This document shows positions 17,791 through 36,718 of a stretch of 64,000 nt of DNA, piece after piece. Positions within the stretch are counted from its first letter, which is position 1; every line of letters begins with the position of its first letter. The notes beneath the pieces are model-generated. The model saw only the letters and a list, made by a program, of their open reading frames with translations. It had not been told where the DNA came from and made no database searches. The translations under genes and the position numbers were made by a program. This DNA is from an uncultured Gemmatimonadota bacterium (GTDB lineage Bacteria; Gemmatimonadota; Gemmatimonadetes; Palauibacterales; Palauibacteraceae): the NCBI GenBank assembly GCA_964613475.1, contig CAZTGV010000002.1, positions 14,453 to 78,452 of the forward strand. Reading direction: 5' to 3'.

Positions 17791-17818
17791 ATGGCGCATA
17801 AGATATATTATGTAAACT
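17791..17818. other. dif: Candidate dif site (XerC/XerD chromosome dimer resolution site)
   Basis: ATGGCGCATAA-GATATA-TTATGTAAACT set against E. coli dif GGTGCGCATAA-TGTATA-TTATGTTAAAT. The GCGCATAA XerC-arm core and TTATGT XerD-arm core are conserved with 11+6+11 spacing. It is the only AT-rich island in a 70% GC region and sits exactly at the convergence of the + and - gene blocks. Confidence 0.6.
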
Positions 17819-18658: not shown

Positions 18659-19662
18659 GCTCCCTCCCCTCCCCGACGGGCGAGCGCCAGGGCCGCCGCC
18701 ACGGCCACCAGCTCGGCGACCGTGGCCCAGATGCGCGCCCCGACCGCGACCAGCGCGGCCACCGGGGCCGGTTGGGGGGTGAGCGCCACCAGCAACCCCG
18801 TCATGGCCCCTTCGCGGACCACCAGACCGCCCGGGGCGAGCACCACCAGGAAGCCGGCCACGTAGCTCGCGGCGAAGATGCCGGTGGCGGCCAGGGGCCC
18901 CGGCGTGGCGGCGGGTCCCACCGCGCCGCGGAGGAAGCACCAGAAGGCCGCCCCGTACAGGAGCCACACGCCGGCCAGGGCGACCCCCGCCCCGAGCAGC
19001 GCGCCCGGGGGGGCGGCCTCGCCGGCGCCGGCCGCCTCCTCTTCGCGCAGCCAGCGGGCGGCGATCCGGGTCGCCCGCCGGACGACGGCCGGATGGAGGA
19101 GGAGCGCCAGCAGGACCCCCACCGCCACGAGCGCCCAGGCCGATCCCGCGATCCGTCCGACCGCGTCCAGGCCCGCCAGGCCGGCGAAGGCGGCGCCCGT
19201 GAGGAGCGTCAGCACCTGCAGCTGGACGCTGGTGGCCACCGCCGCCGAGGCCGAGTGGCCGCGGGCGCGGAGGTAGATGGCCAGCCCCGAGAGCTGCCAG
19301 ACCTTGCCGGGGATGTAGCGCCCGAGGTTGGAGCCCATCCAGGCCGCCACGCCACGGCCCAACCCGATGCGGGCGCCCGTTCCCCGGAAGAGGAAGACCC
19401 ACGCGGCCGCGGTGACCCCGAGGGCCGCGGCCGCCAGGAGCGTGGCGGCGGCCAGCCAGCCGGCGTGCAGCCGCCACGGGAACCCCTGGACCTGCGCCCG
19501 CAGCCGCGACCATTCCCCGAAGCGCTCCGTCAGGAGCAGCGCGACGAAGAGTGCCGCGACCACCAGGAACGCCGCCGCGAGCCAGCGACGCGCTCCCCGA
19601 CGGGACCGGGGACCGAGCCGGCCCGGCTCCGCGCCCCGTCCTTCCCTGCCTCCGCCGCTCAG
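18655..19662 (-). CDS. UPF0104 / lysyl-PG-synthase-TM-like (flippase-like) membrane protein; no canonical start (CTG 19662 overlapping yfhO stop is the only candidate)
   Basis: C-terminal 315 aa of ORF 18655..22074: 8 TM helices with the WRLHAGWLAAATLL and GRYIPGKVWQ-type segments of PF03706. Upstream part of that ORF is shadow of yfhO in another frame. Confidence 0.6.
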   Translation of the reverse strand: MSGGGREGRGAEPGRLGPRSRRGARRWLAAAFLVVAALFVALLLTERFGEWSRLRAQVQGFPWRLHAGWLAAATLLAAAALGVTAAAWVFLFRGTGARIGLGRGVAAWMGSNLGRYIPGKVWQLSGLAIYLRARGHSASAAVATSVQLQVLTLLTGAAFAGLAGLDAVGRIAGSAWALVAVGVLLALLLHPAVVRRATRIAARWLREEEAAGAGEAAPPGALLGAGVALAGVWLLYGAAFWCFLRGAVGPAATPGPLAATGIFAASYVAGFLVVLAPGGLVVREGAMTGLLVALTPQPAPVAALVAVGARIWATVAELVAVAAALALARRGGEGA

Positions 19663-22190
19663 CGGGTCCGCCTCGAGCGTCGCCGGGCGATCGCGAGCCA
19701 CCCGGCGCCCAGCACGAGCCCGGCCAGCGAAGCCGCCGAGAGGACGCGTCCGAGCGCCAGGCCGGGCACCCGATAGGAGAGCCGCACCTCGTGCTCGCCG
19801 GCCGGCACGAGGACGCCCCGGAACGCCCCGTTCGTGCGATAGAGAGGAAGCGCCCGGCCGCCGGATCCCGCGGACCACCCCGGAGCCCACACCTCGCTCA
19901 CGAACAGGAGGCCTTCCCGCTCCGCCGAGACCGAGAGGACCACCTCGTCCGCCGTCCAGCGTGTCAGGCGCGCGGTGCCCCGGCCCGCCGGCGGCGCCTC
20001 CGAAGCCTCGACCACCGCCTCGGCTCGGCCGTCGGACAAGGCGAGGGTCCGCCGGACGGCCTCTTCCGGCTCCGTTACGGCCGAGATGCGCTCCGGGAAC
20101 CAGGCGTGCGGCGCCGCCTCCGCGACCTCGTACATCCGGATCTCCGCCCCCGGTCGTCCGCCGAAGCCGACCGGCCGCAGGAGCGGGACGTCGAGCTCGG
20201 AACGGGTCGTCAGGTACCGGAGGTCGAACATGGGCCACAGCACCGGATGCCGGAACAGCGCCTCGAAGCCCACGCCGCCCACCAGCTCCGCGTACCAGGA
20301 GAGCAGGAACTTCTGGGTGCCCGCGACGGTCGGGACGTCGTGCCGCATGAGATCGTTCGGATGGTAGGTCCCCTCCACGGGCAGGGCGCGCTCTCCGGGC
20401 TCGAGCGACTCCTGGAGGAACGCCACCGGCCCGTCCGCGGTGAAGAAGGGGGCGGCCTCCGCCATCCGGACGAAGCGGGCGTCCACCCGCCACAGGTCGG
20501 CCACCAGGACGAGGAGGAGGACCGGGAGCGGCCACGGGGGTAGGCCCAGGCCACGCGGGCGCGATCCCTCCTTCCCCGCCCCCTCCGGGCCGTCGCCGCC
20601 CCGGCGCGCCGCCCAGGCGGCGGCCAGCACCAGGACCCAGGCCGCCACCAGGAAGCCGCCGGAGGTCCGGAGCGCCCCCTCCAGCTCCGCCGGCGGCGTG
20701 CGCGGCCAGCCGCCCGGGAACCAGGCGTGATAGACGAAGTTCAGCAACCCGCCCGGCGCCAGCAGGGCCGCCAGCCCGAGAACGAGGAAGGGCGCGGCGA
20801 CGCCTCCGAGCGCCCAGGCGGAGAGCGGCCGTTCCCGGGTCCGGATCCGCTCCCACCCGACCCCGGCCAGCAGCGCGACGAACGCCGAGACCGGCGCGAG
20901 CATCATGGAAGGCGCCCGGAAGCTGTCCATCAGCGGGATCGCCGCGTACGCGACCCGGTGGACCGGCGTCGCGCCGCCCAGCGCGAACAGGATCCCCACC
21001 AGCGACGCTCCACCCAGGAACCACACGGTCCCCCGGGACGCCGGCTCCCCCGGCACGCGCCCTCCGACGGAGGCAGCGACCGCCACCACCGCGAGCGCAA
21101 TGGGTACGGCACCCAGATACTCCGTGTGCAGCTTGAACGGGTTCGCGCCCCAGTACGTATCCAGCCCCCCGATCAGGTCGGGCAGGAAGAGCGCGGTCAC
21201 TTCCTGCGGCGGGAGCGCCCAGGATGCCGCGAACTCGTAGCCCTCCTCGGCCGCGGCCCGCACGACGTGCTCGAGCAGCGCCGCGGTGGGGACGATCTGG
21301 ACCGCGGCCAATCCGGCGGCGAGGCCGAACGCCCCCGCCACCCACAGGGCGCGCCGCCAGGGCGCCCGCTGCGCCGCGCGGGCGGGTCCGCGCTCGACCC
21401 GGGAAGCCGAGCGCCCCCCCGCCGGCTCGGCCGCCGCCGTCCGGTGGATCTCCCACAGCCGGAAGGCCGCGTAGGCGACGAGGGCGAGCGAGGAGAAGTA
21501 CATGACCTGCGCGTGCGGGGTGAGGAGCTGCAGGGCCAGCGCCGCCGCGAGGCCGAGGAACCATCCCGCCTCCCCGCTCCGGAGGCCGCGCTCCAGGAGC
21601 CCCAGCGCCAGCGGGATGAGCACGATCGCGAACATCCGACCGTCGTGCCCGCCGTACAGGGTGGAGAGGAGATAGCCGGAGAACATGAAGGCGAGCCCGC
21701 ACACCGCCGCCGCGGACCGGCCGAACCGGAAGGCGCGGGCCGCGAAGTAGGCGAAGGCGCCGGCCAGGAACAGGTGCAGCACGAAGGTCCAGCCGATCGC
21801 CCGGTGGAGCGGGAGCGCCAGGTAGAGGAGACTCGAGGGATAGAAGAGCGGCCCGGGCAGCGTGGCCAGGAATGGATGGCCCCCGTTCAGGTAGGGATTC
21901 CAGCCCGGGAGCCCGCGCCCGGCGCGCAGCTCCTCGAGCGCGAACCGGCGCAGCGGAAGGCCCTCCAGGATCATGTCGCTCCCGAAGAGCATCCGCTCGG
22001 CGTGGAAGACGAACTCCCGGAAGAAGAGGAGCGCCAGGATGGCCGTGCCGAGCGCGAAGGCGGCGTCCGCCCACCGCCCCCGGCGGACGCCGCCGTTCGG
22101 TGACGCGGGTGCGCCCGAAAGCGGCGTCCGCCCACCTTCCTCCGGCGGCGGCCCCTTCCCCGCCCCGCGCTCCGATCTCGGATGGCTCAT
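19659..22190 (-). CDS. YfhO-like GT-C membrane glycosyltransferase (843 aa)
   Basis: Roughly 13 TM helices plus a large C-terminal extracytoplasmic domain. N-terminal region FGSDMILEGLPLRRF...WNPYLNGGHPF resembles YfhO family. ATG at 22190 (aa 123 of ORF 19659..22556); 4-nt overlap with the methyltransferase stop. Confidence 0.65.
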   Translation of the reverse strand: MSHPRSERGAGKGPPPEEGGRTPLSGAPASPNGGVRRGRWADAAFALGTAILALLFFREFVFHAERMLFGSDMILEGLPLRRFALEELRAGRGLPGWNPYLNGGHPFLATLPGPLFYPSSLLYLALPLHRAIGWTFVLHLFLAGAFAYFAARAFRFGRSAAAVCGLAFMFSGYLLSTLYGGHDGRMFAIVLIPLALGLLERGLRSGEAGWFLGLAAALALQLLTPHAQVMYFSSLALVAYAAFRLWEIHRTAAAEPAGGRSASRVERGPARAAQRAPWRRALWVAGAFGLAAGLAAVQIVPTAALLEHVVRAAAEEGYEFAASWALPPQEVTALFLPDLIGGLDTYWGANPFKLHTEYLGAVPIALAVVAVAASVGGRVPGEPASRGTVWFLGGASLVGILFALGGATPVHRVAYAAIPLMDSFRAPSMMLAPVSAFVALLAGVGWERIRTRERPLSAWALGGVAAPFLVLGLAALLAPGGLLNFVYHAWFPGGWPRTPPAELEGALRTSGGFLVAAWVLVLAAAWAARRGGDGPEGAGKEGSRPRGLGLPPWPLPVLLLVLVADLWRVDARFVRMAEAAPFFTADGPVAFLQESLEPGERALPVEGTYHPNDLMRHDVPTVAGTQKFLLSWYAELVGGVGFEALFRHPVLWPMFDLRYLTTRSELDVPLLRPVGFGGRPGAEIRMYEVAEAAPHAWFPERISAVTEPEEAVRRTLALSDGRAEAVVEASEAPPAGRGTARLTRWTADEVVLSVSAEREGLLFVSEVWAPGWSAGSGGRALPLYRTNGAFRGVLVPAGEHEVRLSYRVPGLALGRVLSAASLAGLVLGAGWLAIARRRSRRTR

Positions 22191-23032
22191 GGTTCCGCCG
22201 CCCCTCGCTCCGCCGACGCGGTCCGCGCCCTGCCCGGCTCCGCCGACGCGGTCCGCGGCCCCGGCCGCTCCGCCGGCTTCTCGAGCAGAAAGAACCATTG
22301 CGGCGAGGCCGCGTGCAAGAGCGGCCGCCGGAGGACGCCGGGAAGCGCGCGCAGGAGCCTGGCCGCGATCCGCCACGGCCGGCCCCGGGAGGCGTCCACC
22401 AGCGCCATCGCCCGCTCCGTGCGGTCCCGCACCCGAAAGCCGGCCTCCCGCATCATCCGCAGTAGCGGCCCGCGGGTCCGGAAGCGGATTCCCTCGTAGC
22501 GCCGCCCCCGGCCCGTCCACCGCAGGTAGCGGTCGGCGAGCGGCCGGGGCAGCCAAGAGAGGAACGGGAGCCGGTAGTGCGGCTCCACGACCGCCAACCG
22601 GTTGCCCGCGGCCACGTAGGCCGCGCCGCCGGGGCGCAGCGCGCGGAACGCCTCGCGGAAGAGAGCCCCCTGGGCTTCCACGTGCTCGTACAGGTGGTTG
22701 AGGAGGAGGAAGTCGAGCGCGCCGTCCGCCACCGGAAGCCGGGTCACGTCGGCCACCGCCGTGCCACGTGGATGCTCGATGAACGACCGGTCCAACTCGA
22801 ATCCGTAGATGTATTTGCCTGTCTTGTCCTCGAGCGTCTTCTTGATGAGGCCGGTCCCGGATCCCAGGTCCGCCACCCGGTCGGCTGCGGCCAGCTCATC
22901 GGCGCACAGGCGGAGGATCACCCGGCCCTTCCGGGCCCGTTCGGCCCGGTAGCCGGCCGACCGCAGGCGGCGATCGTACGCGTCGCCCGCCACCCCCGCA
23001 TGACCACCTCCCCCACCCGCGCGGTCGCTCAT
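22187..23032 (-). CDS. Class I SAM-dependent methyltransferase with repeat-containing C-terminus
   Basis: Motif I VADLGSGTG, Methyltransf_11/23-like core. C-terminal RTASAE repeats are encoded by a 30-bp tandem DNA repeat. Confidence 0.75.
   Translation of the reverse strand: MSDRAGGGGGHAGVAGDAYDRRLRSAGYRAERARKGRVILRLCADELAAADRVADLGSGTGLIKKTLEDKTGKYIYGFELDRSFIEHPRGTAVADVTRLPVADGALDFLLLNHLYEHVEAQGALFREAFRALRPGGAAYVAAGNRLAVVEPHYRLPFLSWLPRPLADRYLRWTGRGRRYEGIRFRTRGPLLRMMREAGFRVRDRTERAMALVDASRGRPWRIAARLLRALPGVLRRPLLHAASPQWFFLLEKPAERPGPRTASAEPGRARTASAERGAAEP
22207..22276. repeat. 30-bp tandem direct repeat (about 2.3 copies: GCTCCGCCGACGCGGTCCGCGNCCNNGCCN) inside the 3' end of the methyltransferase gene, overlapping the yfhO start
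   Basis: Two near-identical 21-nt cores at ~22207 and ~22237, with a degenerate third copy at ~22267. They encode RTASAE(P/R)G peptide repeats. Confidence 0.6.
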
Positions 23033-23063: not shown

Positions 23064-24386
23064 TCATTCCGCCCGGCCGTCCCCGGCGCGGTGCACGATC
23101 GCCCCCCGGTAGCAATCCAGCAGGTCGTCCACCACGCGCTCCCAGGAGAACCGCTCGCTCGCCCATCGCCGGCCCGCCTCGGCCACCCGACGTGCCTCCT
23201 CCGGCGCCGCGGCCACGGCCAGGATCCGCGCCGCCAGCGCCTCCGGGTCCCCCGGCGGCACCAGCCAGCCGGTCTCCCCGTGCCTCACGATGTCCGGAAT
23301 GCCGCCCACCGCGGAGCCGATCACCGGCCGTCCGAAGCGGAGCGCCTCGAGGAGCACCACCCCGAGCCCCTCGGTGTCCCCTTTCCGGTCGACCACCGCG
23401 GGCAGCACGAAGACGTCGCAGCGCGCGTACAGGTCGCGCAGCGTCGCCGCCGGCACGCGGCCGGTGAAGCGGACCCGCTCCTCGACGCCTGCCTCGCGAG
23501 CCGCCCGGCGGATCCGGGGCTCCCGCTCGCCCTCGCCCACCACCGTGAGGCGGGCCGGCCGCTCCCTCAGGATCCGCGGCAGCGCCCGGACCAGGACCTC
23601 CACCCCCTTGCGCTCGACCAGCCGGCCCACGAAGAGGAGCTCGATCGGCCCCTCTCCGGCCAACGGCGGGACGGCCTCGCGCTCCGGACTCTCAGCGCCT
23701 TCGGCCCGCTCGAGCGCGGCGGCGAAGGGGATCACCCGGGCCTCCCTCCCCCCGAGGGCGCGCACCCGCGCCGCCGTGGGCGTCGAGATCGCCGTCACCT
23801 CGTCCGCCGTCCGGATCGTCCAGCGCAAAAAAGATCTCAGCCATCGGAGCCGCCGCTCCACCCAGCGCAGCTCGACGCTGTAGTAGCTGCACACGAGCGC
23901 CGTCCGTCCCCCCGAGGCGCGCCGGGCCGCCGCGCCGAGCAGGGCGTGCGGCATCGGCCAGTGCACGTGGACCACGTCCGGCCGCTCCCGCCCCAGCCGC
24001 CACGAAGCGCCCACCCCCCCGGCCAGGTAGGCCGGCAGCAGGGCGGACCAGGCCGGACGCGCGGCGAGCCGGTCGGGGACCGTCTGGTCGTGGGTGAGCC
24101 GCTCGAGCGGCGCGGGGGCGTACCGGAAGCGGTGGACGGGGATGCCCGGCCCGCGCGCGTCGGACGGATCGGAGCCGCCGGCGCCACTGGCGACGGAGCC
24201 GGAGGCGCCCGTGGCGACGCGGCCGGTGGTGCCGGCGGTCCCCGGCGGTCCGCCCCGGTAGGCCGGCGCCAGCACCTCCGCCTCCACGCCCCGCTCCCGC
24301 AGGCGGCCGAGCAAGGTGACCAGCCAGGGCGTGATCACGTCCTCCGGCCCGCGCGGCCACGCGGTCACCACGTGGATCACCCTCAT
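23064..24386 (-). CDS. GT4 family glycosyltransferase (GT-B, 'glycos_transf_1')
   Basis: C-terminal EX7E-type region (GLGVVLLEALRFGRPVIGSAVGGIPDIV). ATG at 24386 (aa 196 of ORF 23064..24971) overlaps the upstream GT39 stop by 4 nt. Confidence 0.85.
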   Translation of the reverse strand: MRVIHVVTAWPRGPEDVITPWLVTLLGRLRERGVEAEVLAPAYRGGPPGTAGTTGRVATGASGSVASGAGGSDPSDARGPGIPVHRFRYAPAPLERLTHDQTVPDRLAARPAWSALLPAYLAGGVGASWRLGRERPDVVHVHWPMPHALLGAAARRASGGRTALVCSYYSVELRWVERRLRWLRSFLRWTIRTADEVTAISTPTAARVRALGGREARVIPFAAALERAEGAESPEREAVPPLAGEGPIELLFVGRLVERKGVEVLVRALPRILRERPARLTVVGEGEREPRIRRAAREAGVEERVRFTGRVPAATLRDLYARCDVFVLPAVVDRKGDTEGLGVVLLEALRFGRPVIGSAVGGIPDIVRHGETGWLVPPGDPEALAARILAVAAAPEEARRVAEAGRRWASERFSWERVVDDLLDCYRGAIVHRAGDGRAE

Positions 24387-25981
24387 CGTCCCGCGGCACC
24401 CTCCTTCGTCACGGCGTGCGCCGTGCGGGGCGGCGGCAGGAAGCGGAGCACGAGCGTCACCGGATCGCCCCCCTCGTACGCCACGTCGAACCGGCTCCGG
24501 TGGGCGCGGATGGCCGGGAGCAGGTAGCGGAAGGTGGTCCCGCTCACCTGGTCCACCACCACGAAGTCGGCCCCCATCGCCTCCAGGCCGGTGACCACCA
24601 CGTCCGGATCGGTCGAAAAGGGATAGACGTCCCCCCGGCGCCGGCCGACCCAGTAGAAGAGGCTGGGCTTCCGGTTCGCGATTACCGCGTCGGCCGGCGT
24701 ATGCTCTCCGGCCCAGCGCGCCGCCGCGTACAGACTGCCGAAGGCGGGTGGGTCGCAGGGCGTCCCCGACCGGTAGGCGGCCAGGCAACGCGCCCGCTCC
24801 GGGGCCAGCGTCGCGGCCGACCGGACCGCCGGCAGCGCGATCAGGAGGGCGGCCGCGATCGCCGCCGCCGTTCCGCGTCCGGCCCATCGGCGACCCGTCG
24901 CGGCGGCCCCCCCCATCGCGTAGAGCAGCAGGAGCGGCGCGAGCGGCAGGAGGAAGCGGGCATCGGTCCATACCTCAGGCCACAGGAGGATCAGCCCGGC
25001 GTAGAGGGCGGTGAACAGCTCGGGGGCTCCGAGGCGGTGGAGCGCGCGCACGATCCACCCCCCCAGCGCCAGGGCGGCCACGCCGAAGCCGAGCGCCACC
25101 GTCGCGCCGCCCAGCTCGTGGGGCGGCATCCCCGCGAAGGCCGCCGGAAGGACCTCGGAGAGGTAGGCCCACGCGTTCCCGGCGGCCCGGGCCAGAAACT
25201 CCGCCGGCCCGACGGCGCCGGCCGCCGGATCGTAGGGGTCGCGCAGGAGGAGCTCCTCCAGGTAGCCGGCCTGCCCGGGCGGAGCCGCTCGCTGGACCGC
25301 GGCCCACCCGGCCATCGCCGCCGCGGCGGCGCTCGCGGCGGCCGCCGCCCGCCCCCAGCGGCGGGCCAGCAGCGGCAGCGCCACCGCGGCCGCCAGCAGC
25401 GGGAGCCCGGCCGTCCGCGTGAGGAAGGCGGCCACCGCCGCCGCCACCCCGAGCCCGAACGCCCGCGCGCCTTCCTCCTCGGCGCGCTCGAGCCACCGGA
25501 GCGACAGGAGCGCCAGGAGGACGAACGGCGCCTCGGAGAGCACCCAGTGCCCGTAGTCGAGCAGCACGGGGTGGAGCGCCACCAGGCCCGCGGCCAGCAG
25601 GGCCGGGGCGGCCCCGATCAGGCGTCGGCCGAGCCGCGCGGTCAGCCACACCGCACCGGCGGTGCACGCCAGCGAGGCGAGCTTGAAGAGCTGAAGGCCG
25701 CCCAGCCAACCGAGGACCGCCAGACCGGCCGGGTAGAGAGGCGGATACTTGGTGTGGATCGGCGTATCCGGCAGGTAGAGGTCCCGGTAGCCGGCGCCCT
25801 CGCGGAGGGCCTCTCCGAGGAGCATATAGATCGCGTTGTCGCCGCCCGGGTGGAGGATCGGCTCGAAGAGGAGGATGCCGAGCAGCAGGTGCAGCCCGAC
25901 GGCGCCGAGCGCCCAGCCCCGGAAGGAGAGTCCGAGCAGGGACCAGGCGGCGCGAGGGGCCTCCCCCCGCCCCGCGCTCAC
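24383..25981 (-). CDS. GT-C membrane glycosyltransferase, ArnT/PMT-like (GT39/GT83 family)
   Basis: 532 aa with ~11 TM helices. N-terminal loop with conserved acidic/aromatic residues (GDNAIYMLLGEAL...YPPLYP) typical of PMT_2/ArnT-like transferases. GTG start. Confidence 0.7.
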   Translation of the reverse strand: MSAGRGEAPRAAWSLLGLSFRGWALGAVGLHLLLGILLFEPILHPGGDNAIYMLLGEALREGAGYRDLYLPDTPIHTKYPPLYPAGLAVLGWLGGLQLFKLASLACTAGAVWLTARLGRRLIGAAPALLAAGLVALHPVLLDYGHWVLSEAPFVLLALLSLRWLERAEEEGARAFGLGVAAAVAAFLTRTAGLPLLAAAVALPLLARRWGRAAAAASAAAAAMAGWAAVQRAAPPGQAGYLEELLLRDPYDPAAGAVGPAEFLARAAGNAWAYLSEVLPAAFAGMPPHELGGATVALGFGVAALALGGWIVRALHRLGAPELFTALYAGLILLWPEVWTDARFLLPLAPLLLLYAMGGAAATGRRWAGRGTAAAIAAALLIALPAVRSAATLAPERARCLAAYRSGTPCDPPAFGSLYAAARWAGEHTPADAVIANRKPSLFYWVGRRRGDVYPFSTDPDVVVTGLEAMGADFVVVDQVSGTTFRYLLPAIRAHRSRFDVAYEGGDPVTLVLRFLPPPRTAHAVTKEGAAGR

Positions 25982-25985
25982 CCGG

Positions 25986-26951
25986 TCACGCCCTCCGGTC
26001 CCGTCGCAGCTCCTCGATCTCCGCCCGGAGCGAGGCCACCATCTCGGCCAGGAAGCCCAGGACGAACAGGAGCAGGCCCGAGACGACCAGCAGGAGCACC
26101 AGGGTGAGGAGCGGCCGGTAACCCTGCCCGAGGCCGAAGCGGAGCCAGAGGGCGACCAGGCCCGTCAGCCCCCCGAGGGCGAGCAGGCCCAGGCCGGTCA
26201 CCCCGAAGAAGAGCATCGGCTTCCGGCTGAACACGAGCTGGAACCAGATGGCGATCAGGTCCAGCATGCCGATCACGATCCGGCCCCGGCCCGCGTACTT
26301 GGGCTCGCCGTGGCGCCGCGGGTACAGGCGGATGTCGATCTCGGTGATGCTGAAGCCGCGCGCGTGCGCCAGCACCACCAGGAAGCGGTGCCAGTCCTTC
26401 CGCAGCCGCAGCTCCTCCAGCACGCCGCGCCGGAACGCCTTCATCGCGTTCATGTCGTGCGCGGGGACGCGGAACACCCGCCGCGTCAGCCAGTTGTAGA
26501 TGCCGGAGACGAGCCGCTTCTCGTACGTCCCGACCTTCCGCCCCGCCACCACGTCCCAACCCTCCTCCAGCTTCTCCACGAAGCGCGGGATCTCCCCGGG
26601 AGAGTGCTGGAGATCGGCATCGAACAGGACCAGGTACTCGCCCCGGGCCGCCCGGGCTCCCGTGAGCAGCGCCTCCGTCTTCCCCCGGTTGCGCCGATGC
26701 CGGAGGAGGCGGGCGTCCGGGAGTCCGGCCTCGGCGGCCGCCCGGCGCGCGGCCTCCAGGGTGCCGTCGGTGGAGCCGTCGTCCACCAGCACGACCTCCG
26801 CGTCCACGGACCCGGAGGCGAAGGCGGCGGCGAGCTCGCGGAAGAGGTCCGGCATGTTCTCGGCCTCGTTGAAGGCCGGGATGATGACCGACGTGCGGTG
26901 GGTGAGCTGTACGCTGGGGGGTGGGGCGCGCTCGGAAACGGCCCCGCTCAT
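25986..26951 (-). CDS. GT2 polyprenyl-phosphate glycosyltransferase (ArnC/GtrB-like, with 2 C-terminal TM helices)
   Basis: VIIPAFNEAEN...VLVDDGSTDGT...DADLQHSP motifs plus C-terminal TM pair, as in ArnC/GtrB. ATG at 26951 overlaps rpoN stop (ATGA). Confidence 0.85.
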   Translation of the reverse strand: MSGAVSERAPPPSVQLTHRTSVIIPAFNEAENMPDLFRELAAAFASGSVDAEVVLVDDGSTDGTLEAARRAAAEAGLPDARLLRHRRNRGKTEALLTGARAARGEYLVLFDADLQHSPGEIPRFVEKLEEGWDVVAGRKVGTYEKRLVSGIYNWLTRRVFRVPAHDMNAMKAFRRGVLEELRLRKDWHRFLVVLAHARGFSITEIDIRLYPRRHGEPKYAGRGRIVIGMLDLIAIWFQLVFSRKPMLFFGVTGLGLLALGGLTGLVALWLRFGLGQGYRPLLTLVLLLVVSGLLLFVLGFLAEMVASLRAEIEELRRDRRA

Positions 26952-28384
26952 ACCCGCTTTCGCATGCGGGCCGAGAGGATCCCGAGCTGGTCCCGGTACT
27001 TGGCCACCGTGCGCCGGGCGATCTGGATCCCCTCCTTCTTGAGGATGTCCACGATCGCCTGGTCTGTGAGCGGGTCGTGCGAGTCCTCCTCGGCCACCAG
27101 CTGCTTGATCTTGGCGCGCACGCCGCGAGCCGAGACGTCCTCGCCGTAGTCGGTCGACAGCCCGCTGGAGAAGAAGAACTTGAGGTGGTACACGCCGCGC
27201 GGCGTCTGCACGTACTTCTCGTTCGTGACCCGCGAGACTGTGGACTCGTGCATGTCGATGTGCTCGGCCACCTCGCGGAGGGTGAGCGGCTTCAGGTGCT
27301 CCACCCCTTTCTCGAAGAAGTCGCGCTGCCGGTCCACGATGAAGTTCATCACCTTCAGCATCGTCTGCCGACGTTGCTCGATCGCCTGGATCATCCACTG
27401 GGCGCTGTTCAGCTTCTTCGAGATGAACGTCTTGTTCTCGCCCTGGAACTGGTTCTTGTTCTTCGCCACCTCCCGGTAGGAGCGCGAGAGCTTCAGGCGC
27501 GGCAGGCTCGTGTCGTTGTGGAACACGTAGTACTTGCCGTCGATCTTCTCGACCACCAGGTCCGGCGTCACGTACGTGTCCCGCATGTCCGCGTACTTGA
27601 GGCCCGGCTTCGGGTCGAGCTTCGCGATCTCGTCCGCGGCGGACTGGACCTCCTTGGGGGAGATCCCGTGCTCCTTGGAGAGCTCGCTCCAGCGGTGGTT
27701 CACCAGCTCCTCGAAGTGGTCGCGGACGATCCGGTAGGCGAGGCTCTCCTCCTGGTCGCGGTCCCGCAGCTGGATGAGCAGGCACTCCCGGAGGTCGCGC
27801 GCCCCCACCCCGCTGGGCTCGAAGCCCTGGATGACTCGCAGGACCTCCTCGGTCTCCTCGAGGGTGATCGTCTCCACCCCTTCCCACTGGGGGTTGCCCG
27901 GGTCCGAGAGGAAGTTGTTCACCGACTCGACGACCTCGTCCAGCTCACAGGTGAGGAAGCCCTCCCGGTCGATGTTCCCGATGATCTCCTCGCCGATCAG
28001 GACCTGACGGGGCTCCAGCTTGAGGAGCTTGAGCTGGTCGCGGAGGCGGTCCCAGAGGTCCTCGGTGGCGACCGGGGTGGGCTGGTAGTACTCCTTCTCC
28101 TCGTACTCCGCCTTCCGACCCCCCGCGTCGAAGCCGTTGAGGAGGATCTCCTCCCAGTCGACCTCGTCGTCCAGCTCGTCCTGCTCGAGCTCGTCCTTGA
28201 GGTCGTCCTCGCCCGGCTCCACCAGGTCGAGGAAGGGATTGTTGACCAGCTCTTGCTTGAGGTGCTGCTGCAGGTCCAGGAGGGGCATGTACAGGAGATC
28301 CATCGCCTGATACAGGCGAGGGTTGACCTTCATCTCCTGCTTCATCCGGACGCTCTGGGAGAGGCCCGTCCTCATATTGCTCAT
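26948..28384 (-). CDS. rpoN: RNA polymerase sigma-54 factor
   Basis: N-terminal Gln/Leu-rich region I (MKQEMKVNPRLYQAMDLLYMPLLDLQQHLKQEL), core-binding domain, HTH and RpoN box (ARRTVAKYR). ATG at 28384 (aa 50 of ORF 26948..28531). Confidence 0.9.
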   Translation of the reverse strand: MSNMRTGLSQSVRMKQEMKVNPRLYQAMDLLYMPLLDLQQHLKQELVNNPFLDLVEPGEDDLKDELEQDELDDEVDWEEILLNGFDAGGRKAEYEEKEYYQPTPVATEDLWDRLRDQLKLLKLEPRQVLIGEEIIGNIDREGFLTCELDEVVESVNNFLSDPGNPQWEGVETITLEETEEVLRVIQGFEPSGVGARDLRECLLIQLRDRDQEESLAYRIVRDHFEELVNHRWSELSKEHGISPKEVQSAADEIAKLDPKPGLKYADMRDTYVTPDLVVEKIDGKYYVFHNDTSLPRLKLSRSYREVAKNKNQFQGENKTFISKKLNSAQWMIQAIEQRRQTMLKVMNFIVDRQRDFFEKGVEHLKPLTLREVAEHIDMHESTVSRVTNEKYVQTPRGVYHLKFFFSSGLSTDYGEDVSARGVRAKIKQLVAEEDSHDPLTDQAIVDILKKEGIQIARRTVAKYRDQLGILSARMRKRV

Positions 28385-28439
28385 GGATGGCTCCGACCTG
28401 GATGTCCGCGTCTCGAACGATTCGCTGGAAATGCCGCTC

Positions 28440-28520
28440 GCGGTCGGCGCGCTCGGGCCGCCCCCGCCCCGCCCCCCACATGCACACAAACTTCGTACCA
28501 GCAAGATAATCGAACGGGGA
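28440..28520 (-). promoter_or_regulatory. Candidate promoter region for the rpoN-glycosylation operon (AT-richer island in the lptB-rpoN intergenic gap)
   Basis: 227-bp lptB-rpoN gap. On the - strand it reads ...GATTATCTTGCTGGTACGAAGTTTGTGTGCATGTGG..., which contains a TGGTAC-N5-TTGT element resembling but not matching the sigma-54 consensus TGGCAC-N5-TTGC. No clean sigma-70 boxes. Confidence 0.2.
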
Positions 28521-28611
28521 GGCGCGAGCACCCCGCGCTTCCCTACCCCGCCGGAGGCACGGCGGTTCGGGGGCTTCCCGGGCGGCCGGGCGGCCGCGGA
28601 GCGGAAGCGAG

Positions 28612-29364
28612 CTAGAGGCGGAAGTCCTGTCCCAGATACATCTTACGAGCCTCGGGATCGTTCACGAGCCGCTCCGCGGGCCCCTCGATGTGGATGCGGC
28701 CGTTGAACATCAGATAGGCCCGGTCGGTGATCGACAGCGTCTCGCGCACGTTGTGGTCGGTGATGAGAACGCCGAGTCCTTTTTCGCGGAGTCCGGCCAC
28801 GATTCGCTGAATGTCGTCCACCGCGATCGGGTCGACCCCGGCGAACGGCTCATCCAGCAGCATGAACTTGGGGCTGGTGACCAGCGCCCGAGTGATCTCC
28901 AGCCGGCGGCGCTCGCCGCCCGACAGCGCGTACGCCTTGCTCTTCCTCAGGTGCTTGATGTGCAGCTCGTCCAGGAGCGCCTCGAGCCGGCGGCGGCGCT
29001 CGTCCCGGCTCAGGTCGAGGGTCTCCAGGATGGCCATCACGTTCTCCTCCACCGTCAGCTTCCGGAAGACGGACGGCTCCTGGGAGAGGTACCCGATGCC
29101 GGCCCGCGCCCGGCGGTACATCGGCCAGTCGGTGATCTCCTCCTCGTCCAGGAACACCCGGCCCCGGTCGGCGTCGAGCAGCCCGACGATCATGTAGAAG
29201 GTGGTCGTCTTCCCGGCTCCGTTCGGGCCGAGCAGGCCGACGATCTCTCCCTGCTCGACCCGCACGTCGACCTCGTCCACCACCCGCCGCTTGCGGAATG
29301 CCTTCACCAGCCCGGAGGCACGCAGGACGCTCCGCGCGGGCAGGGGGGCGTCGGGGCGTGGCAT
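28612..29364 (-). CDS. lptB: LPS export ABC transporter ATP-binding protein LptB
   Basis: Walker [13 protein letters not shown] signature LSGGERRR, Walker B LLDEP. ATG at 29364 (aa 48 of ORF 28612..29505). Confidence 0.9.
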
Positions 29365-29501: not shown

Positions 29502-31217
29502 TCATCGCCCGCCCTCCGGGGGCCGCTCCGCCGGCCCCGAGACGGTGTCCGAGGGGGCCGGTTCGCCTTGGGGAAGCGGCGGGAGCGTGTCCGGGGGCGC
29601 GCGCCCGGGCGGCGCCTCCCCGGCCGCCCCCTCCTCCAGCGGGTCCAGGTATAGGCCGATCGCGTCGCGTCCGACCACCCGGCTCGCCTCGCCCTCCTCG
29701 AACAGGATTTCGATCTCCCGGCCGATCAGGTAGTTGCGCGAGGGGATGGACGTGCGCGTCGTGTCCCGCACGGCCGCGTAGAAGGCGCGGGCGTCGCCGA
29801 CGACCCGGATGCGCCGCAGGCGGGCCTCCCGATCCCCGGCCGGTTCGGTGGCCGTTTCTCGCTCGGCCGCTCCGTCCGGCTCGTCCCCGTCCTCGGCCGC
29901 TCCATCCGCTCCGTCCCCTTGCTCGGCCGCTTCATCCGCCCCGTCCTCGGCGGGCTCGGCCGGCAGCGGCTCGAACATCGCCCACAGCGTGTCGCCCGTG
30001 GCCCAGTTCGTCTCCCTCTCCACCGGAAGCTCGGGGTCCGGGATGCGGCGCGGCTCCGCGCCGGCCCCCGACCGCGCCGTCGGCTCGTCCTCGGCCGCGC
30101 GCTCCGTCGTCTCCTCCCCGCGCACCGCCACGGCCCGTCCGACCGCCACGATCGTGTCGAGCCGGCCCTCCACCAGGAAGAAGCGGAGGGAGTCCCCGTA
30201 CAGGCGGTGCGGCGGTGAGAGGGCGAGCGAGCGTTCCGGTCCGAAGGCCCACACGGCGTCCACCTCGTCCTCCTCGACCCGGATGTGGATCGCCTCGGCG
30301 AGCACCTCGAAGGACTCCCCCGCGGCGCGCCCGCGGCCGAGCGCGCGCACCTCCTCCAGGTCGCCTTCCTGAAAGCGGAGGCGGATCGTGTCGCCCTCGA
30401 GCGAGAAGCGCTCCCCCGCCGCCCGTGGCGTTCCGAGGAGGAGCCCGGTACCCGCCTCGAGGTCGAAGAAGGCGCTGTCGGAACTCGCGCGCAGGTCGGG
30501 CCTCTCGATCACCACCTCCCCCCACGCCGCGGCGCGCTCCTCCCCGGCGAACTCCGTCCGGTCCGCGTCCACCTCGAAGGGCGGCGCCTCCGGGTCTTCC
30601 TCGGAGCGCAGCACCATGTGCGGGCGACCGGTCGCCACGGTGCGCTCGGCGACGCCCGACACGGCCCGCAGGAACTCCACCCGCGGTCCCTCCAGCGTGG
30701 AGCCGGAGCCGAAGCGCTCCAGGCGGACGTCCCCGGTCGCCACCACCCGGTCGCCGACCTGGTAGTAGTCGAGCCGCTCCGAATCGAGCCGCCGGATCGT
30801 GTCCCGGTACCGGACCCGCCCCAGCAGCTCCACCCGGCGCTCGGCCTCGTAGCGGACGGCGCTGTCGGCCTCCATCACGGCCGTTCCGCACGTCCATTCC
30901 ATCCCCCCTCCCACGTGCGTGACGTGCCCGCCGGCGGGGTCGCGGACGCTCACGCTGCGCGTCTCGGGGGAGGCCGGCTCCCAGGTGAGCACGCAGCGGC
31001 GGAGTCCGGGCTCGTCGGGCCCTTCCGGGCCCTCCGGCTCCACCTCTTCGGCCGGGCGGGGCGGCTCCTCCTGCTCCGCCTCCTCCTCCCGAGGCTCGGG
31101 CTCCTGGCCGACCGCCGCCGAGCCGGGGAGTCCGAGCGCCAGCAGGGCGACCGCCAGCGCGGCCAGGAGCGTCGGGCGGACGGGGGGCGCGGGGATCGGG
31201 CGCGCGGCGGACCGCAT
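29502..31217 (-). CDS. lptA: LptA/OstA-family periplasmic protein, unusually long (571 aa) with acidic low-complexity tract
   Basis: Signal peptide ([38 protein letters not shown]). Repeated OstA-like beta-jellyroll segments. Sits in the lptC-lptA-lptB context. Confidence 0.65.
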
Positions 31218-31225
31218 CGGCGCGG

Positions 31226-31816
31226 CTATCCCTCCCCCTCGGCGCGACCGGCCGGCTGGAGCACCCGCACCGTGTCCAGCGCCGGGTCGGTCTCGAACCC
31301 GCGGCCGCGCAGCACCGTGTCGCCCCGGTAGAGGGTGAACGCGCGGTCGCTCCGCAGCCGGTCGGCCACCGCGTCGTACTCGAGCTCCTCGGTGACCAGC
31401 CGCTGGCCCTCCCGGCGGTCCAGGAGCACGACGCCGCCGAACGCCTCCATGTCGTTCCGCTGCATGTCGTAGTAGCCTTCCCGGGCGGTGAGCTGGGAGG
31501 TCACCCGGCCGTCCTGGTCGTAGAAGGTCAGGTCGACCGGCACCACCCGCACCCGCGTGTCGTCCCGGAGGAAGTAGGCGGTGTCCGCGACGAGGTGGGC
31601 GCGGCGCAGGCCGCTCCGGCTCATGAAGTGCTCCATGTCGACCAGCACCTGATCGGCCCCGAGCCGCAGGAACTCCGGCCCGGCCGTCTCCACCGGGTCC
31701 TCCGACCCGCAGCCCGCGAGCGTCGCGATCAGGGCGAGCGCGCCGAACGCGGCCGGGCCGCCGGATCGGCCGCGCGCGATCCGCGCCCCGCCCCGCTTCC
31801 CCTCGCACCGCCTCAC
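31226..31816 (-). CDS. lptC: LptC-like protein (lipoprotein-type signal LAGC); alternative GTG start at 31846
   Basis: Position between kdsD and lptA. C-terminal LptC-like beta-jellyroll. ...AAFGALALIATLAGCGS lipobox. Confidence 0.6.
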   Translation of the reverse strand: MRRCEGKRGGARIARGRSGGPAAFGALALIATLAGCGSEDPVETAGPEFLRLGADQVLVDMEHFMSRSGLRRAHLVADTAYFLRDDTRVRVVPVDLTFYDQDGRVTSQLTAREGYYDMQRNDMEAFGGVVLLDRREGQRLVTEELEYDAVADRLRSDRAFTLYRGDTVLRGRGFETDPALDTVRVLQPAGRAEGEG

Positions 31817-31842
31817 GCCGCCACGCCTCGCCTCGCTCGGCC

Positions 31843-32823
31843 TCACGCCATTCCGGCACGCAGGAGGTCGTGCAGGTGGACGATCCCCCGCAGCGCCCCC
31901 CGTCCATCCACCACCGGCAGCGCCATGATCCCGTGCGTCTCGAGCTCCCGGACCGCCTCGGCGGCCAACGCGTCGGCCCCGATCACCTTCGGCTCCCGGT
32001 TCATCGCCCGCTCCACCGGATCGGTCAGGAAGTGGGGCCGCCCCTCCGCGTAGCGCGTGAGGTCTCCCGCGGTCAGCACCCCGATCACTCGCCGCGCCTC
32101 GTCCACCACCGGCACCGTGCCTCGCTTGTGCGCGATCTCCCGCATCGCCTCTCCCAGCGTGGACCGGGGGCCCACCGCCGGCACCTCCCCCTCGTCCTTC
32201 ACCATCACGTCCTCTACCCGCCAGAGGAGACGGCGTCCCAGCGCCCCGCCCGGATGCAGACGGGCGAAGTCCTCGGCGCCGAAGTCCCGCTCCTCCAGCA
32301 GCGCCATGGCCAGCGCGTCGCCCATGGCCAGGGCGGCCGTGCTGCTCGAGGTGGGGGAGAGGTCGTGCGGGCACGCCTCCTCGGCCACGCTCACGTCCAG
32401 CACGACCTCCGCGTGCCGGGCCAGGGTGGAGCGGAGCCCCCCGGTGAGGGCGATCACCGGAATGTCCAGCCGCTTGACCGCCGGCATCAGGGCGGACAGC
32501 TCCTGGGACTCGCCGCTCCGGGACACGACGAGCAGCAGGTCACCGCGCAGCAGCACCCCCATGTCGCCGTGGATCCCCTCCACCGGGTGGAGGAACAGGG
32601 CCGGCGTTCCGGTGGAGGCCAGGGTGGACGCGATCTTCCGGGCCACCAGGCCGGACTTCCCGATTCCGGTGACCACCACGCGACCCGGCGCCGACAGGAT
32701 CCGCCGCACGGCGGTCACGAAGCGCTCGTCGAGTCGGTCTCCGAGCGCCGCCACGCTCTCCGCCTCGAGGCGGATCGTCTCCCGGCCGCGCGCGAGGACC
32801 CGCCCGTCCCGATCCCCGATCAC
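31843..32823 (-). CDS. kdsD: Arabinose-5-phosphate isomerase KdsD (SIS + tandem CBS)
   Basis: SIS domain (VVVTGIGKSGLVARKIASTLASTGTPA) plus CBS pair. GTG at 32823 forms a GTGA overlap with kdsC stop; longer ORF start at 32958 would overlap kdsC by 140 nt. Confidence 0.85.
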   Translation of the reverse strand: MIGDRDGRVLARGRETIRLEAESVAALGDRLDERFVTAVRRILSAPGRVVVTGIGKSGLVARKIASTLASTGTPALFLHPVEGIHGDMGVLLRGDLLLVVSRSGESQELSALMPAVKRLDIPVIALTGGLRSTLARHAEVVLDVSVAEEACPHDLSPTSSSTAALAMGDALAMALLEERDFGAEDFARLHPGGALGRRLLWRVEDVMVKDEGEVPAVGPRSTLGEAMREIAHKRGTVPVVDEARRVIGVLTAGDLTRYAEGRPHFLTDPVERAMNREPKVIGADALAAEAVRELETHGIMALPVVDGRGALRGIVHLHDLLRAGMA

Positions 32824-33401
32824 CCGGACCCCTCCGGCCGTCCCCGGCCGCGCGCCACGTACGCGTCCACCAGCCGGCTCCATTCGCCCCGCGCCCGAAG
32901 GAGCGCCTCGGCGAACTCCCGCACCGCGCCCCGCCCGCCCGGCGCGGTGGAGCGCCACACCGCCCGCCTTCGCACCTCGGGCGCCGCATCCGCCACCGCG
33001 GCGGGCAGTCCGACCCGCTCCAGGACGGCGAGGTCCGCCAGGTCGTCGGCCAGGCAGGCGGCCTCCGCCCAGCCGCAGCCGTGACGATCGAGGAGCGCCT
33101 CGATCCGCTGCACCTTGTCGAACGGGCCCACCTGGTGGACCTCCTCGATGGAGAGGTCCGCCGCCCGCGCCCGGACCGCCGGGGAGTCCTTGCCGGAGAC
33201 CACCGCCACCGCGAGGCCCGCCTCCCGCAGGAAGTGGACGCCCATCCCGTCGCGCACGTGGAAGCGGCGCAGCCCGTAGGGGCGCCCGTCGGGGCCGTCC
33301 GCCACGTAGATCCCCCCGTCGGTGAGCACGCCGTCCGCGTCCAGCACGATCAGCCGAACTCGACGGGCGCGCGTCGCGAAGTCGCCGCCGGGATCGGTCA
33401 C
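32820..33401 (-). CDS. kdsC: Kdo-8-phosphate phosphatase KdsC (HAD superfamily)
   Basis: HAD motif I LIVLDADGVLTDG, KdsC-size 194 aa. GTG start overlapping kdsA stop. Upstream part of ORF 32820..33800 is low-complexity. Confidence 0.8.
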   Translation of the reverse strand: MTDPGGDFATRARRVRLIVLDADGVLTDGGIYVADGPDGRPYGLRRFHVRDGMGVHFLREAGLAVAVVSGKDSPAVRARAADLSIEEVHQVGPFDKVQRIEALLDRHGCGWAEAACLADDLADLAVLERVGLPAAVADAAPEVRRRAVWRSTAPGGRGAVREFAEALLRARGEWSRLVDAYVARGRGRPEGSG

Positions 33402-34213
33402 GCCAGCGCCTCCCGCAGCCGCAGCACCTCTTCCAGGAGCGGCTCCAGGCGCGCCAGCGGCAGCATGTTCGGCCCGTCCGAGGGGGCGGCCCCCGGGTCC
33501 GGGTGGACCTCGAGGAAGAGCCCGTCGGCCCCCGCCGCCACCGCGGCCCGGACCAGCGGCTCGATGAAACGGGGCTCCCCGCCGCTCGCGGCTCCCCCCC
33601 CTCCCGGCAGCTGCACGGCGTGCGTGCCGTCGAACACGGCGGGACAGCCGCAGGCCTCCCGCATGATGGCGAAGCTCCGCATGTCCACCACCCAGCGGCC
33701 GTAGCCGAAGGCGGTCCCCCGCTCGGTGACCGCGATCTCCTCCGCGCCGGCCGCCCGGACCTTCTCGACCGAGTGCGCGATCTGCTCGGGCGCCATCCAC
33801 TGCCCCTTCTTCACGTTCACCGGCCGCCCGCTCGCCCCGCAGGCGGCCAGCAGCTCGGTCTGCCGCGACAGGAAGGCCGGCACCTGGAGCGCGTCGACCA
33901 CTGCGGCCACCGCCTCCACCTGCGCGGGTCCGTGCACGTCCGTCAGCACGGGGAGCCCCGTCTCGTCACGGACCTCCCGGAGCCGCTCCAGCCCCCGCGC
34001 CAGGCCCGGGCCGCGCTCCGAGCCGAGGGAGGTGCGGTTCGCCTTGTCGAAGGAGGCCTTGAAGTAGACGGGGATCCCCAGCCGTCCGGCCGCCGCCGCC
34101 ACCCCAGCGGCCACCCGCACGTTGAGCGCGCGGTCCTCCAGGACGCACGGCCCCGCGATCAGGAAGAAGGGGGCATCGGCGCGAAAGGAGGGGCTGGAAG
34201 CGGGGGCGGGCAC
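33398..34213 (-). CDS. kdsA: 2-dehydro-3-deoxyphosphooctonate aldolase (Kdo8P synthase)
   Basis: DAHP-synthase-I/KdsA family TIM barrel (FFLIAGPCVLE, KASFDKANRTS), 271 aa. Confidence 0.9.
   Translation of the reverse strand: MPAPASSPSFRADAPFFLIAGPCVLEDRALNVRVAAGVAAAAGRLGIPVYFKASFDKANRTSLGSERGPGLARGLERLREVRDETGLPVLTDVHGPAQVEAVAAVVDALQVPAFLSRQTELLAACGASGRPVNVKKGQWMAPEQIAHSVEKVRAAGAEEIAVTERGTAFGYGRWVVDMRSFAIMREACGCPAVFDGTHAVQLPGGGGAASGGEPRFIEPLVRAAVAAGADGLFLEVHPDPGAAPSDGPNMLPLARLEPLLEEVLRLREALA

Positions 34214-34238: not shown

Positions 34239-36718
<2,480 letters not shown>

Follow-up and report, generated by a model that had tools for sequence, protein, structure and literature searches.

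The sigma-54 gene rpoN overlaps the first gene of a conserved, predicted envelope-glycosylation cluster in Gemmatimonadota

In Proteobacteria, the gene for sigma-54, rpoN, is found in a locus with the order kdsD-kdsC-lptC-lptA-lptB-rpoN-hpf-ptsN-rapZ-npr (PMC3162934). The kds/lpt neighbourhood of rpoN is a known pattern in diderm bacteria, and sigma-54 has been suggested from comparative genomics to govern the exterior of the bacterial cell (Francke et al. 2011, PMC3162934). Here we describe the rpoN locus in a 64-kb stretch of contig CAZTGV010000002.1 (referred to as the window), from an uncultured Gemmatimonadota bacterium. The window has the same upstream order on one strand, while the hpf/ptsN/rapZ/npr half of the proteobacterial locus is replaced by seven predicted glycosylation genes (g1 to g7), the first of which overlaps the rpoN stop codon. 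The locus differs further in that, in the clade of the window, lptB and rpoN are separated by a spacer (227 nt in the window) bearing a sigma-54-like element. We consider it probable that an envelope-glycosylation operon begins with rpoN, that this operon is part of a lipopolysaccharide (LPS) supra-operon, and that rpoN would be coupled to g1 by termination and reinitiation of translation. The physical basis of the proposed connection between sigma-54 and the exterior has so far been mostly the proteobacterial lpt/kds neighbourhood, and the link in Gemmatimonadota, a little-studied phylum, is both tighter and different.

The seven downstream genes can be compared with glycosylation systems of the ArnC/ArnT, Gtr and CsbB/YfhO types. 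In these systems undecaprenyl phosphate receives a sugar on the cytoplasmic side of the membrane; the sugar is then flipped, and a GT-C membrane glycosyltransferase transfers it to an acceptor on the outside. Relatives of the ArnC/ArnT type include LgmA/LgmB of Bordetella, FlmF2/FlmK of Francisella and RgtE/RgtA-D of Rhizobium, while three-component systems are represented by GtrA/GtrB/GtrV in O-antigen modification and CsbB/GtcA/YfhO in teichoic-acid glycosylation. The locus in the window resembles ArnC/ArnT lipid A modification in that g1 has a full-length match to ArnC, a PMT_2/ArnT-like gene (g2) lies directly next to it, and LPS genes adjoin. It differs in that g1 scores 108 bits against the ArnC equivalog model NF007986, for which the cutoff is 529 bits, in that no genes like arnA, arnB or arnD were found in the cluster by Pfam matches, and in that g2 has no detectable similarity to solved ArnT. 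The logic of the Gtr and CsbB-GtcA-YfhO systems, a lipid-carrier family 2 glycosyltransferase (GT2) acting with a flippase and a GT-C enzyme, appears to be shared, with the YfhO-family gene g5 near a GT2 (g7) and a flippase-like gene (g6). Here, however, no cluster gene matched the GtrA flippase family, and the flippase role would fall to g6, an LPG_synthase_TM protein and the only flippase-like candidate. The cluster also differs in having two GT2/GT-C pairs together with a GT4 glycosyltransferase and a methyltransferase, and its host is a diderm of another phylum. We know of no report of a three-component glycosylation system linked to rpoN.

A literature search turned up no account of rpoN sharing an operon with a glycosyltransferase gene, of such an arrangement being conserved in Gemmatimonadota or of the spacer element, in agreement with a preliminary description of this DNA that had called the operon architecture undescribed. 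That sigma-54 is connected with envelope genes, and that rpoN lies among lpt/kds genes, is already known (PMC3162934); the rpoN-GT2 layout is apparently undescribed. If the co-expression suggested by this layout is true, it would be a simple case of a sigma factor made in fixed proportion to envelope-modifying enzymes, and would offer a handle on the role of sigma-54 in Gemmatimonadota, a phylum for which we know of no sigma-54 regulon.

Since the window has a G+C content of approximately 74%, genes were placed by codon-position GC and then by family searches. The minus strand carries all genes from approximately 17.9 kb to past 49 kb, and the features given below are on that strand unless stated otherwise. 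The rpoN gene (26948-28384) encodes a complete sigma-54 of 478 aa, in which the activator-interacting (Pfam AID, 46.9 bits), core-binding (CBD, 188 bits) and DNA-binding (DBD, 218 bits) domains and the RpoN box, ARRTVAKYR, were all found. The TIGR02395 model scores 443 bits against a cutoff of 277, and a protein of 478 aa that is 100% identical to this RpoN is on record in NCBI.

At the end of rpoN the sequence reads CGA AAG CGG GTA TGA GCG. The rpoN stop (TGA, 26950-26948) shares bases with the g1 start (ATG, 26951-26949), producing an ATGA overlap at 26948-26951. The ATG at 26951 is the sole ATG, GTG or TTG between a start at 27398, deep within rpoN, and the next start, the ATG at 26855, which would truncate the GT2 domain. 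A g1 start downstream of the overlap is thereby ruled out in the window, and it is likewise ruled out in the 35 relatives where the overlapping codon is the only possible GT2 start. A terminator between rpoN and the glycosylation cluster was also rejected, as a 4-nt overlap leaves no room for one and a terminator scan of 17-36.5 kb gave, from lptB to g7, only four weak, intragenic signals, compared with 2.8 expected from shuffled sequences. Overlaps of 4 nt are, however, the commonest junction type among the gene calls in the window (18 of 47 same-strand junctions). The overlap alone would therefore speak for a shared operon and not for a special functional link, and the question becomes whether this particular pairing is conserved.

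Conservation was assessed in the 80 best genome matches to RpoN (68-80% identical; loci numbered L001-L080, approximately 1.3 Mb in total). Nearly all are metagenome-assembled genomes (MAGs) of Gemmatimonadota, and approximately three carry other labels that are probably mis-binned. In all 78 loci that reach past the rpoN stop, a GT2 is the next same-strand gene, and in the closer clade the full g1-g7 series is syntenic. Two complete Gemmatimonadaceae-type genomes (L081 and L082) were reached through a representative whose RpoN is 61% identical; in these, rpoN and the GT2 are 7 nt apart or overlap by 8 nt. The adjacency in 78 of 78 loci rules out a recent insertion of the glycosylation genes.

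The overlap itself also bears signs of selection. The RpoN C-terminus (LSARMRKRV*) is invariant among the relatives. Its last codon, for valine, is GTA in 57 of the 78 loci, and the stop codon is TGA in 70 of the 78. GTA accounts for only 5% of valine codons elsewhere in the rpoN genes of the relatives and for 1.6% in 15 genes of the window. The ATG that results is in frame with the GT2 and open into it in all 57 loci with GTA, and four more have GTGA, bringing the loci with ATGA or GTGA to 61. Codon-position GC in the variable N-terminus of g1 (0.79/0.67/0.78) was too weak to decide whether this region is coding, and a test of frame preservation was used in its place. Between the overlapping start and the conserved P-x-x-N/D-E motif of the GT2 there are 42 to 204 nt, in 19 distinct lengths that are all divisible by three, and of the 64 loci with the overlap, 63 have the GT2 domain in the frame set by the overlapping start. 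In the 13 loci without the overlap, the three frames occur 6, 4 and 3 times, as in a random distribution. Because the rare GTA codon is kept, the ATG is in frame and the frame is held across 19 lengths, our analyses indicate that the overlapping GT2 start is used and under selection. A rare codon thus appears to be the price of keeping the rpoN stop on the start of a lipid-carrier glycosyltransferase gene. An overlapping start without alternatives and an overlap conserved among relatives are what is expected of a translationally coupled pair.

These results agree in part with what the preliminary description had proposed for this part of the window. Its gene identities and its ATGA overlap between rpoN and a GT2 were borne out by Pfam and TIGR matches and by the junction sequence, and its tight cluster of a GT2 and six more glycosylation genes was found much as described, with seven genes following rpoN. 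It had held that relatives showing a recent, unconserved insertion would count against a connection of sigma-54 with envelope glycosylation at the level of the operon. The opposite was found in the 78 loci and in the two complete Gemmatimonadaceae genomes, and the layout conserved in Gemmatimonadota lends support to such a link.

The conserved pairing could have a more mundane origin. The dense packing of a compact, high-GC genome would explain the overlap if rpoN were a neutral guest after lptB, as it is in Proteobacteria, and the glycosylation genes were the distal part of an LPS operon, in which case the overlap would have no meaning specific to sigma-54. The frequency of 4-nt overlaps in the window is what such packing predicts. 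The kds-lpt block upstream is classical, and the association of lpt/kds genes with rpoN in diderms was already described (Francke 2011, PMC3162934). In addition, no signatures of a bacterial enhancer-binding protein (bEBP; GAFTGA, Walker A), the activators of sigma-54, were found in the window or within approximately 10 kb in the 80 loci. Packing nevertheless leaves unexplained the constant GT2 partner across 61-80% RpoN identity, the rare codon kept for the overlap and the sigma-54-consensus element found before rpoN in approximately 50 loci (see below). We therefore regard it as an unlikely account, although one that deserves to be kept in view.

A different objection is that g1-g7 have a promoter of their own within the 3' end of rpoN, which would make the overlap irrelevant and the regulation of the two parts separate. 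Internal promoters are common in long operons. Our sigma-70-type scan of the region was negative but uninformative, since the promoter consensus of the phylum is not known, and distant clades have gaps of up to 150 nt, some bearing hairpins, between rpoN and the GT2. On the other hand, the invariant RpoN C-terminus leaves little room for a promoter, as its codons are constrained by the protein, and selection for an overlapping start and its frame would be hard to explain if reinitiation were unimportant. Of the alternatives considered here, a separate promoter seems to us the least probable.

Several other observations weigh against rpoN being the coupled first cistron of a glycosylation operon. 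Co-transcription and reinitiation at the rpoN/g1 junction are inferred from DNA alone, and the codon-position GC signal of the g1 N-terminus is weak. In five distant loci (L059, L062, L067, L079 and L080) the stretch between rpoN and the GT2 has gained hairpins or insertions: long perfect palindromes in L059 and L080, a GC-rich hairpin in L079, and unusually long gaps with acquired material in L062 (11440-12320) and L067 (11440-11700). The gap in L062 contains a small GxxExxY-like ORF (open reading frame) on the opposite strand and remnants of REDAKN-type repeats. As to the enzymes, g1 is far below the ArnC cutoff, and neither g2 nor g5 has a relative in the PDB, even with profiles from ortholog alignments; their assignment to GT-C is by modest Pfam scores.

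With these reservations, we favor coupling of rpoN to the glycosylation genes. The supra-operon would read pyrG-kdsA-kdsC-kdsD-lptC-(ORF in the lptA position)-lptB, then the 227-nt spacer, then rpoN-GT2-GT-C-GT4-methyltransferase-YfhO-flippase-like-GT2. In the clade of the window, rpoN-g7 would form a transcription unit of approximately 10.5 kb starting within the spacer, because the spacer is the largest gap and no terminator-like signal above chance was found; there is still room for read-through into rpoN from the lpt genes. Ribosomes ending at the rpoN TGA would reinitiate at the overlapping g1 ATG, and g1 synthesis would in this way be tied to the synthesis of sigma-54.

The lptB-rpoN spacer (28385-28611) is the biggest same-strand non-coding gap among the gene calls of the first 49 kb and is likely the promoter region of the rpoN-glycosylation unit. 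It contains a sigma-54-promoter-like element, TGGTACGAAGTTTGT (28486-28500), located 102-116 nt 5' of the rpoN ATG and in the same sense as rpoN. The element has GG at -24 and the correct spacing, but at -12 it has GT where GC would be canonical. No other sequence in the window matches the degenerate pattern TGGYAYRNNNNTTGY, for which 0.05 matches would be expected. Of 30 matches to this pattern across the 1.3 Mb of the relatives' loci, 29 are in the lptB-rpoN spacer, 18 of them forward (mostly TGGTACGATTCTTGT) and 11 inverted. In the spacers of L001-L061, the forward form, which the window shares, is TGGTACG-N4-TTGT, and an inverted, near-perfect form, TGGCACG-N4-TTGCA, is present in approximately 33 other loci. 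Similarly, TGGCACGNNNNTTGCA occurs with at most two mismatches in the spacers of 35 loci, which amount to 14 kb, compared with 22 matches in the remaining 1.25 Mb; four are perfect. Nearly all of these spacer matches are on the strand opposite rpoN, directly after the lptB stop. TATCTT is found near the element in both the forward and the inverted class. As the loci are related, these counts are not independent events. Even so, the spacer element is clearly conserved in two orientations, and it could reflect sigma-54 autoregulation by occlusion or interference, a true sigma-54 promoter in the forward class, or something unrelated.

One possibility, which is compatible with coupling of rpoN to g1, is that the -24/-12-like element puts the rpoN-glycosylation unit under sigma-54, which would then determine how much of itself and of the glycosylation enzymes is made. 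The element could act as a true sigma-54 promoter in the forward class, which includes the window, or, in the reverse class, as a silent closed-complex site that occludes a housekeeping promoter or drives antisense transcription into lptB. The concentration of matches in the spacer favors this idea, and precedents exist for both arrangements. In rhizobia, rpoN of R. leguminosarum is negatively autoregulated and the prxS-rpoN2 operon of R. etli is activated by NifA (PMC3538637). In Salmonella, sigma-54 sites in the opposite orientation have been proposed to act by interference or through antisense RNA (PMC3844500). Our locus is like the rhizobial ones in having a -24/-12-like element directly 5' of rpoN. 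The rhizobial control rests on experiment, however, whereas here there is a sequence element with a non-canonical -12 in the window and an inverted site in most relatives. The class of the window has T for the highly conserved C at -12, and an extended -10 (TGgTAcgAT) is an alternative reading of the forward motif. Where other loci have canonical copies, these face away from rpoN; no activator gene or upstream activating sequence was identified at the loci, and the deeper clades have no lptB-rpoN spacer at all. With these points and the relatedness of the loci taken together, control of the unit by sigma-54, also suggested in the preliminary description as something that may occur, is a possibility to which we assign only a small share of the probability.

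A structured RNA or riboswitch in the spacer was rejected: no Rfam family matched at E <= 1 and the predicted fold was unremarkable (z = -0.5). Between the lptB stop and an AT-rich promoter-like patch, at 28520-28560, there is a GC-rich stem-loop, GGGAAGCGCG ... CGCGCCUCCCC, followed by the U-rich GUUCGAUUAUCUU. This could be a weak terminator or attenuator of the lpt transcript, and it did not pass our simple terminator scan.

Comparison with more distant relatives revealed that the coupling partner of rpoN differs between clades. The deeper clades comprise Longimicrobiales-labelled MAGs, the MAG L079 from Gemmatimonadaceae and others. There, lptB ends in GTA TGA and rpoN begins at that ATG, and the GT2 follows 7-150 nt after rpoN, often with a GGAGG ahead of it that resembles a Shine-Dalgarno sequence, as in loci where the gap measures 7-15 nt. 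This lptB/rpoN coupling class lies among loci L059 and L062-L080. The clade of the window has the reverse layout, with a spacer of 92-355 nt between lptB and rpoN and an overlap of rpoN with the GT2. Two loci, L063 and L075, are intermediate between the two layouts. In the outgroup sample, which is one lineage with an RpoN 50% identical to that of the window (protein searches being dominated by Gemmatimonadota), neither lptB, hpf nor a GT2 adjoins rpoN. From these comparisons, the lptB-rpoN-GT2 triad is judged to be ancestral to Gemmatimonadota. The switch between lptB-rpoN and rpoN-GT2 coupling is a natural experiment on operon rewiring. In its boldest form, the history of the locus would be that sigma-54 moved from being the last coupled LPS-export cistron to being the first coupled glycosylation cistron, with a sigma-54 site upstream through which it controls itself together with the envelope enzymes, and with a dif site adjoining (see below). 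Self-control of this kind would amount to a hard-wired feedback module between sigma-54 and the envelope. As a whole this history appears doubtful to us, more so than control by the spacer element taken by itself.

The first of the seven downstream genes, g1 (25986-26951), encodes a GT2 (Glycos_transf_2, 111 bits) of the ArnC/GtrB/dolichyl-phosphate mannose synthase (DPMS) kind. It has an FDADLQH motif, which contains DAD, and two hydrophobic C-terminal segments that would form transmembrane helices. Among solved structures it matches ArnC over its full length (E 3e-30, residues 19-309), GtrB (5ekp) over residues 17-312, and DPMS. A GT-A domain, a DxD motif, a C-terminal transmembrane hairpin and full-length alignment are what characterizes polyprenyl-phosphate GT2s. 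Because it matches ArnC over its full length, and DPMS and GtrB as well, and yet scores far below the ArnC cutoff, g1 is assigned from its sequence as a polyprenyl-phosphate sugar synthase, not ArnC proper, and its sugar is left unassigned.

The remaining genes follow closely. The polytopic membrane protein g2 (24383-25981) is a PMT_2/ArnT-like GT-C glycosyltransferase with a PMT_2 score of 27.3 bits against a gathering score of 26.1; among its orthologs, 11 of 16 match PMT_2, the best at E 5.7e-9. A cytoplasmic, nucleotide-sugar-dependent GT4 glycosyltransferase is predicted for g3 (23064-24386; Glycos_transf_1, 147 bits, and Glyco_transf_4), and an S-adenosylmethionine-dependent methyltransferase for g4 (22187-23032; Methyltransf_23, _11 and _25). 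The 843-aa g5 product (19659-22190) is a YfhO-family GT-C membrane protein, in which only the C-terminal part matches YfhO, with 44 bits where the gathering score is 28.5. YfhO is matched by 16 of its 17 orthologs too (best E 2.7e-17). Both g2 and g5 are thus polytopic and score above the gathering threshold of a GT-C family, which places them in GT-C at the family level. The flippase-like membrane protein g6 (18655-19701) matches LPG_synthase_TM (PF03706) with 52.6 bits, above the gathering score of 33.4. The unit closes with g7 (17933-18658; Glycos_transf_2, 119 bits), which encodes a second GT2 that is short, soluble and without transmembrane helices, and in approximately 33 loci this position is held by a second GT2 that is g1-like. 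The junctions are a 4-nt gap (g1/g2), ATGA (g2/g3), a 31-nt gap (g3/g4), ATGA (g4/g5) and GTGA (g6/g7), with GGGGAGGGGAGGGAG just before the g7 start; at g5/g6, one choice of start gives a 43-nt overlap and another a 95-nt gap.

Together, g1-g7 look like a polyprenyl-phosphate-dependent machinery for glycosylation at the periplasmic face. In this scheme g1 and g7 would be the lipid-carrier GT2s, g6 would fill the flippase role and g2 and g5 would be the GT-C transferases, while the GT4 (g3) and the methyltransferase (g4) could serve in making or modifying the sugar. We think it most likely that the sugar goes to LPS (lipid A or core) or to a different glycoconjugate of the outer envelope. LPS is suggested because genes for Kdo (3-deoxy-D-manno-oct-2-ulosonate) and Lpt proteins adjoin and g1 and g2 are an ArnC/ArnT-like pair, although for LPS specifically our confidence falls somewhat short of even.

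Upstream, the long minus-strand run begins with pyrG (CTP synthase, 34239-35933; CTP_synth_N, 429 bits, and GATase), which holds the same position in L081 and L082. It is followed by a kdsA-like gene of the Kdo-8-phosphate synthase family (33398-34213; DAHP_synth_1, 205 bits), which overlaps the next gene by 4 nt. That gene (32820-33401) is a kdsC-like phosphatase of the HAD (haloacid dehalogenase) type. This assignment is weak, with only sub-threshold matches to Hydrolase and Hydrolase_3, and the label was given because the ORF lies between kdsA and kdsD in an order kept in L081 and L082. A kdsD-like arabinose-5-phosphate isomerase gene (31843-32823; SIS, 80.7 bits; CBS, 78.6 bits) and lptC (31226-31846; LptC, 33.6 bits against a gathering score of 21) come next. 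In the two complete genomes, with approximately 61% RpoN identity, the order is kdsB-pyrG-kdsA-kdsC-kdsD-lptC-ORF-lptB-rpoN-GT2. The classical kds-lpt block upstream, the commonness of ATGA in this DNA and the lptB-rpoN coupling in deeper clades are all points that lay outside the preliminary description.

The ORF in the lptA position, between lptC and lptB (29502-31217, 571 aa), has no Pfam match. Orthologs of 643-685 aa are at the same place in the Gemmatimonadaceae genomes, and the copy in L082 has faint matches to LptD_N and OstA_2; the ORF may encode an unusually long LptA-like bridge protein. The ATPase gene of the LPS-export ABC (ATP-binding cassette) transporter, lptB (28612-29364), matches TIGR04406 with 368 bits against a cutoff of 240. 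An alternative ATG at 29505, after GGAGG, would overlap the stop of the preceding ORF (ATGA) and add approximately 47 N-terminal residues. The alignment to the family begins at residue 14 of the shorter form.

The hpf, ptsN and rapZ genes were searched for by tblastn with approximate E. coli Hpf, PtsN and RapZ sequences as queries. Nothing credible was found in the window or within approximately 10 kb in the 80 loci, and Pfam matches around rpoN in L081 and L082 likewise gave no sign of hpf, ptsN, rapZ or npr. An hpf gene inserted in the long rpoN-GT2 gaps of L062 and L067 was considered and rejected; in L062 the gap is taken up by the GxxExxY-like ORF and by sequence resembling repeats. The preliminary description had reported that the hpf-ptsN-rapZ-npr module is missing beside rpoN, and this is upheld by these searches. 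Its statement that bacteria almost universally carry hpf and ptsN after rpoN was overstated, as the outgroup lineage has no hpf next to rpoN and the arrangement is a diderm pattern, mainly proteobacterial (Francke 2011, PMC3162934).

The same description had the EIIA domain of PtsN moved elsewhere and fused to CBS domains. The protein in question (47491-48453, 320 aa) has a solid CBS pair (102 bits, residues approximately 159-290). Its N-terminal part of approximately 150 residues reaches 16.7 bits (E 0.0075) against PTS_EIIA_2, for which the gathering score is 27, and gave no EIIA structure in the PDB at E <= 1 and no tblastn match to the approximate E. coli PtsN query. A single-sequence AlphaFold2 model was unusable (pLDDT 46). 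The relocation is thus not established, while a degenerate EIIA-like regulatory domain is possible. By eye, one N-terminal segment resembles the EIIA_2 core.

Outside the operon, 117 nt past the g7 stop, there is a dif-like site, GCGCATAAGATATATTATGTAAA (17794-17816, plus strand), which is unique in the window, with 0 expected; the E. coli dif probe, like the E. coli protein queries, was approximate. The site coincides with a switch in gene orientation and in the sign of the GC skew. A dif-like motif, GCGCATAA-N6-TTATGTWAA, was found after the cluster in 30 related loci (for example L004, L010, L022, L054 and L079), in the same relative orientation and approximately 100-300 nt past the second GT2. 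Because of this recurrence, the kds-lpt-rpoN-glycosylation block seems to lie next to the replication terminus across the phylum.

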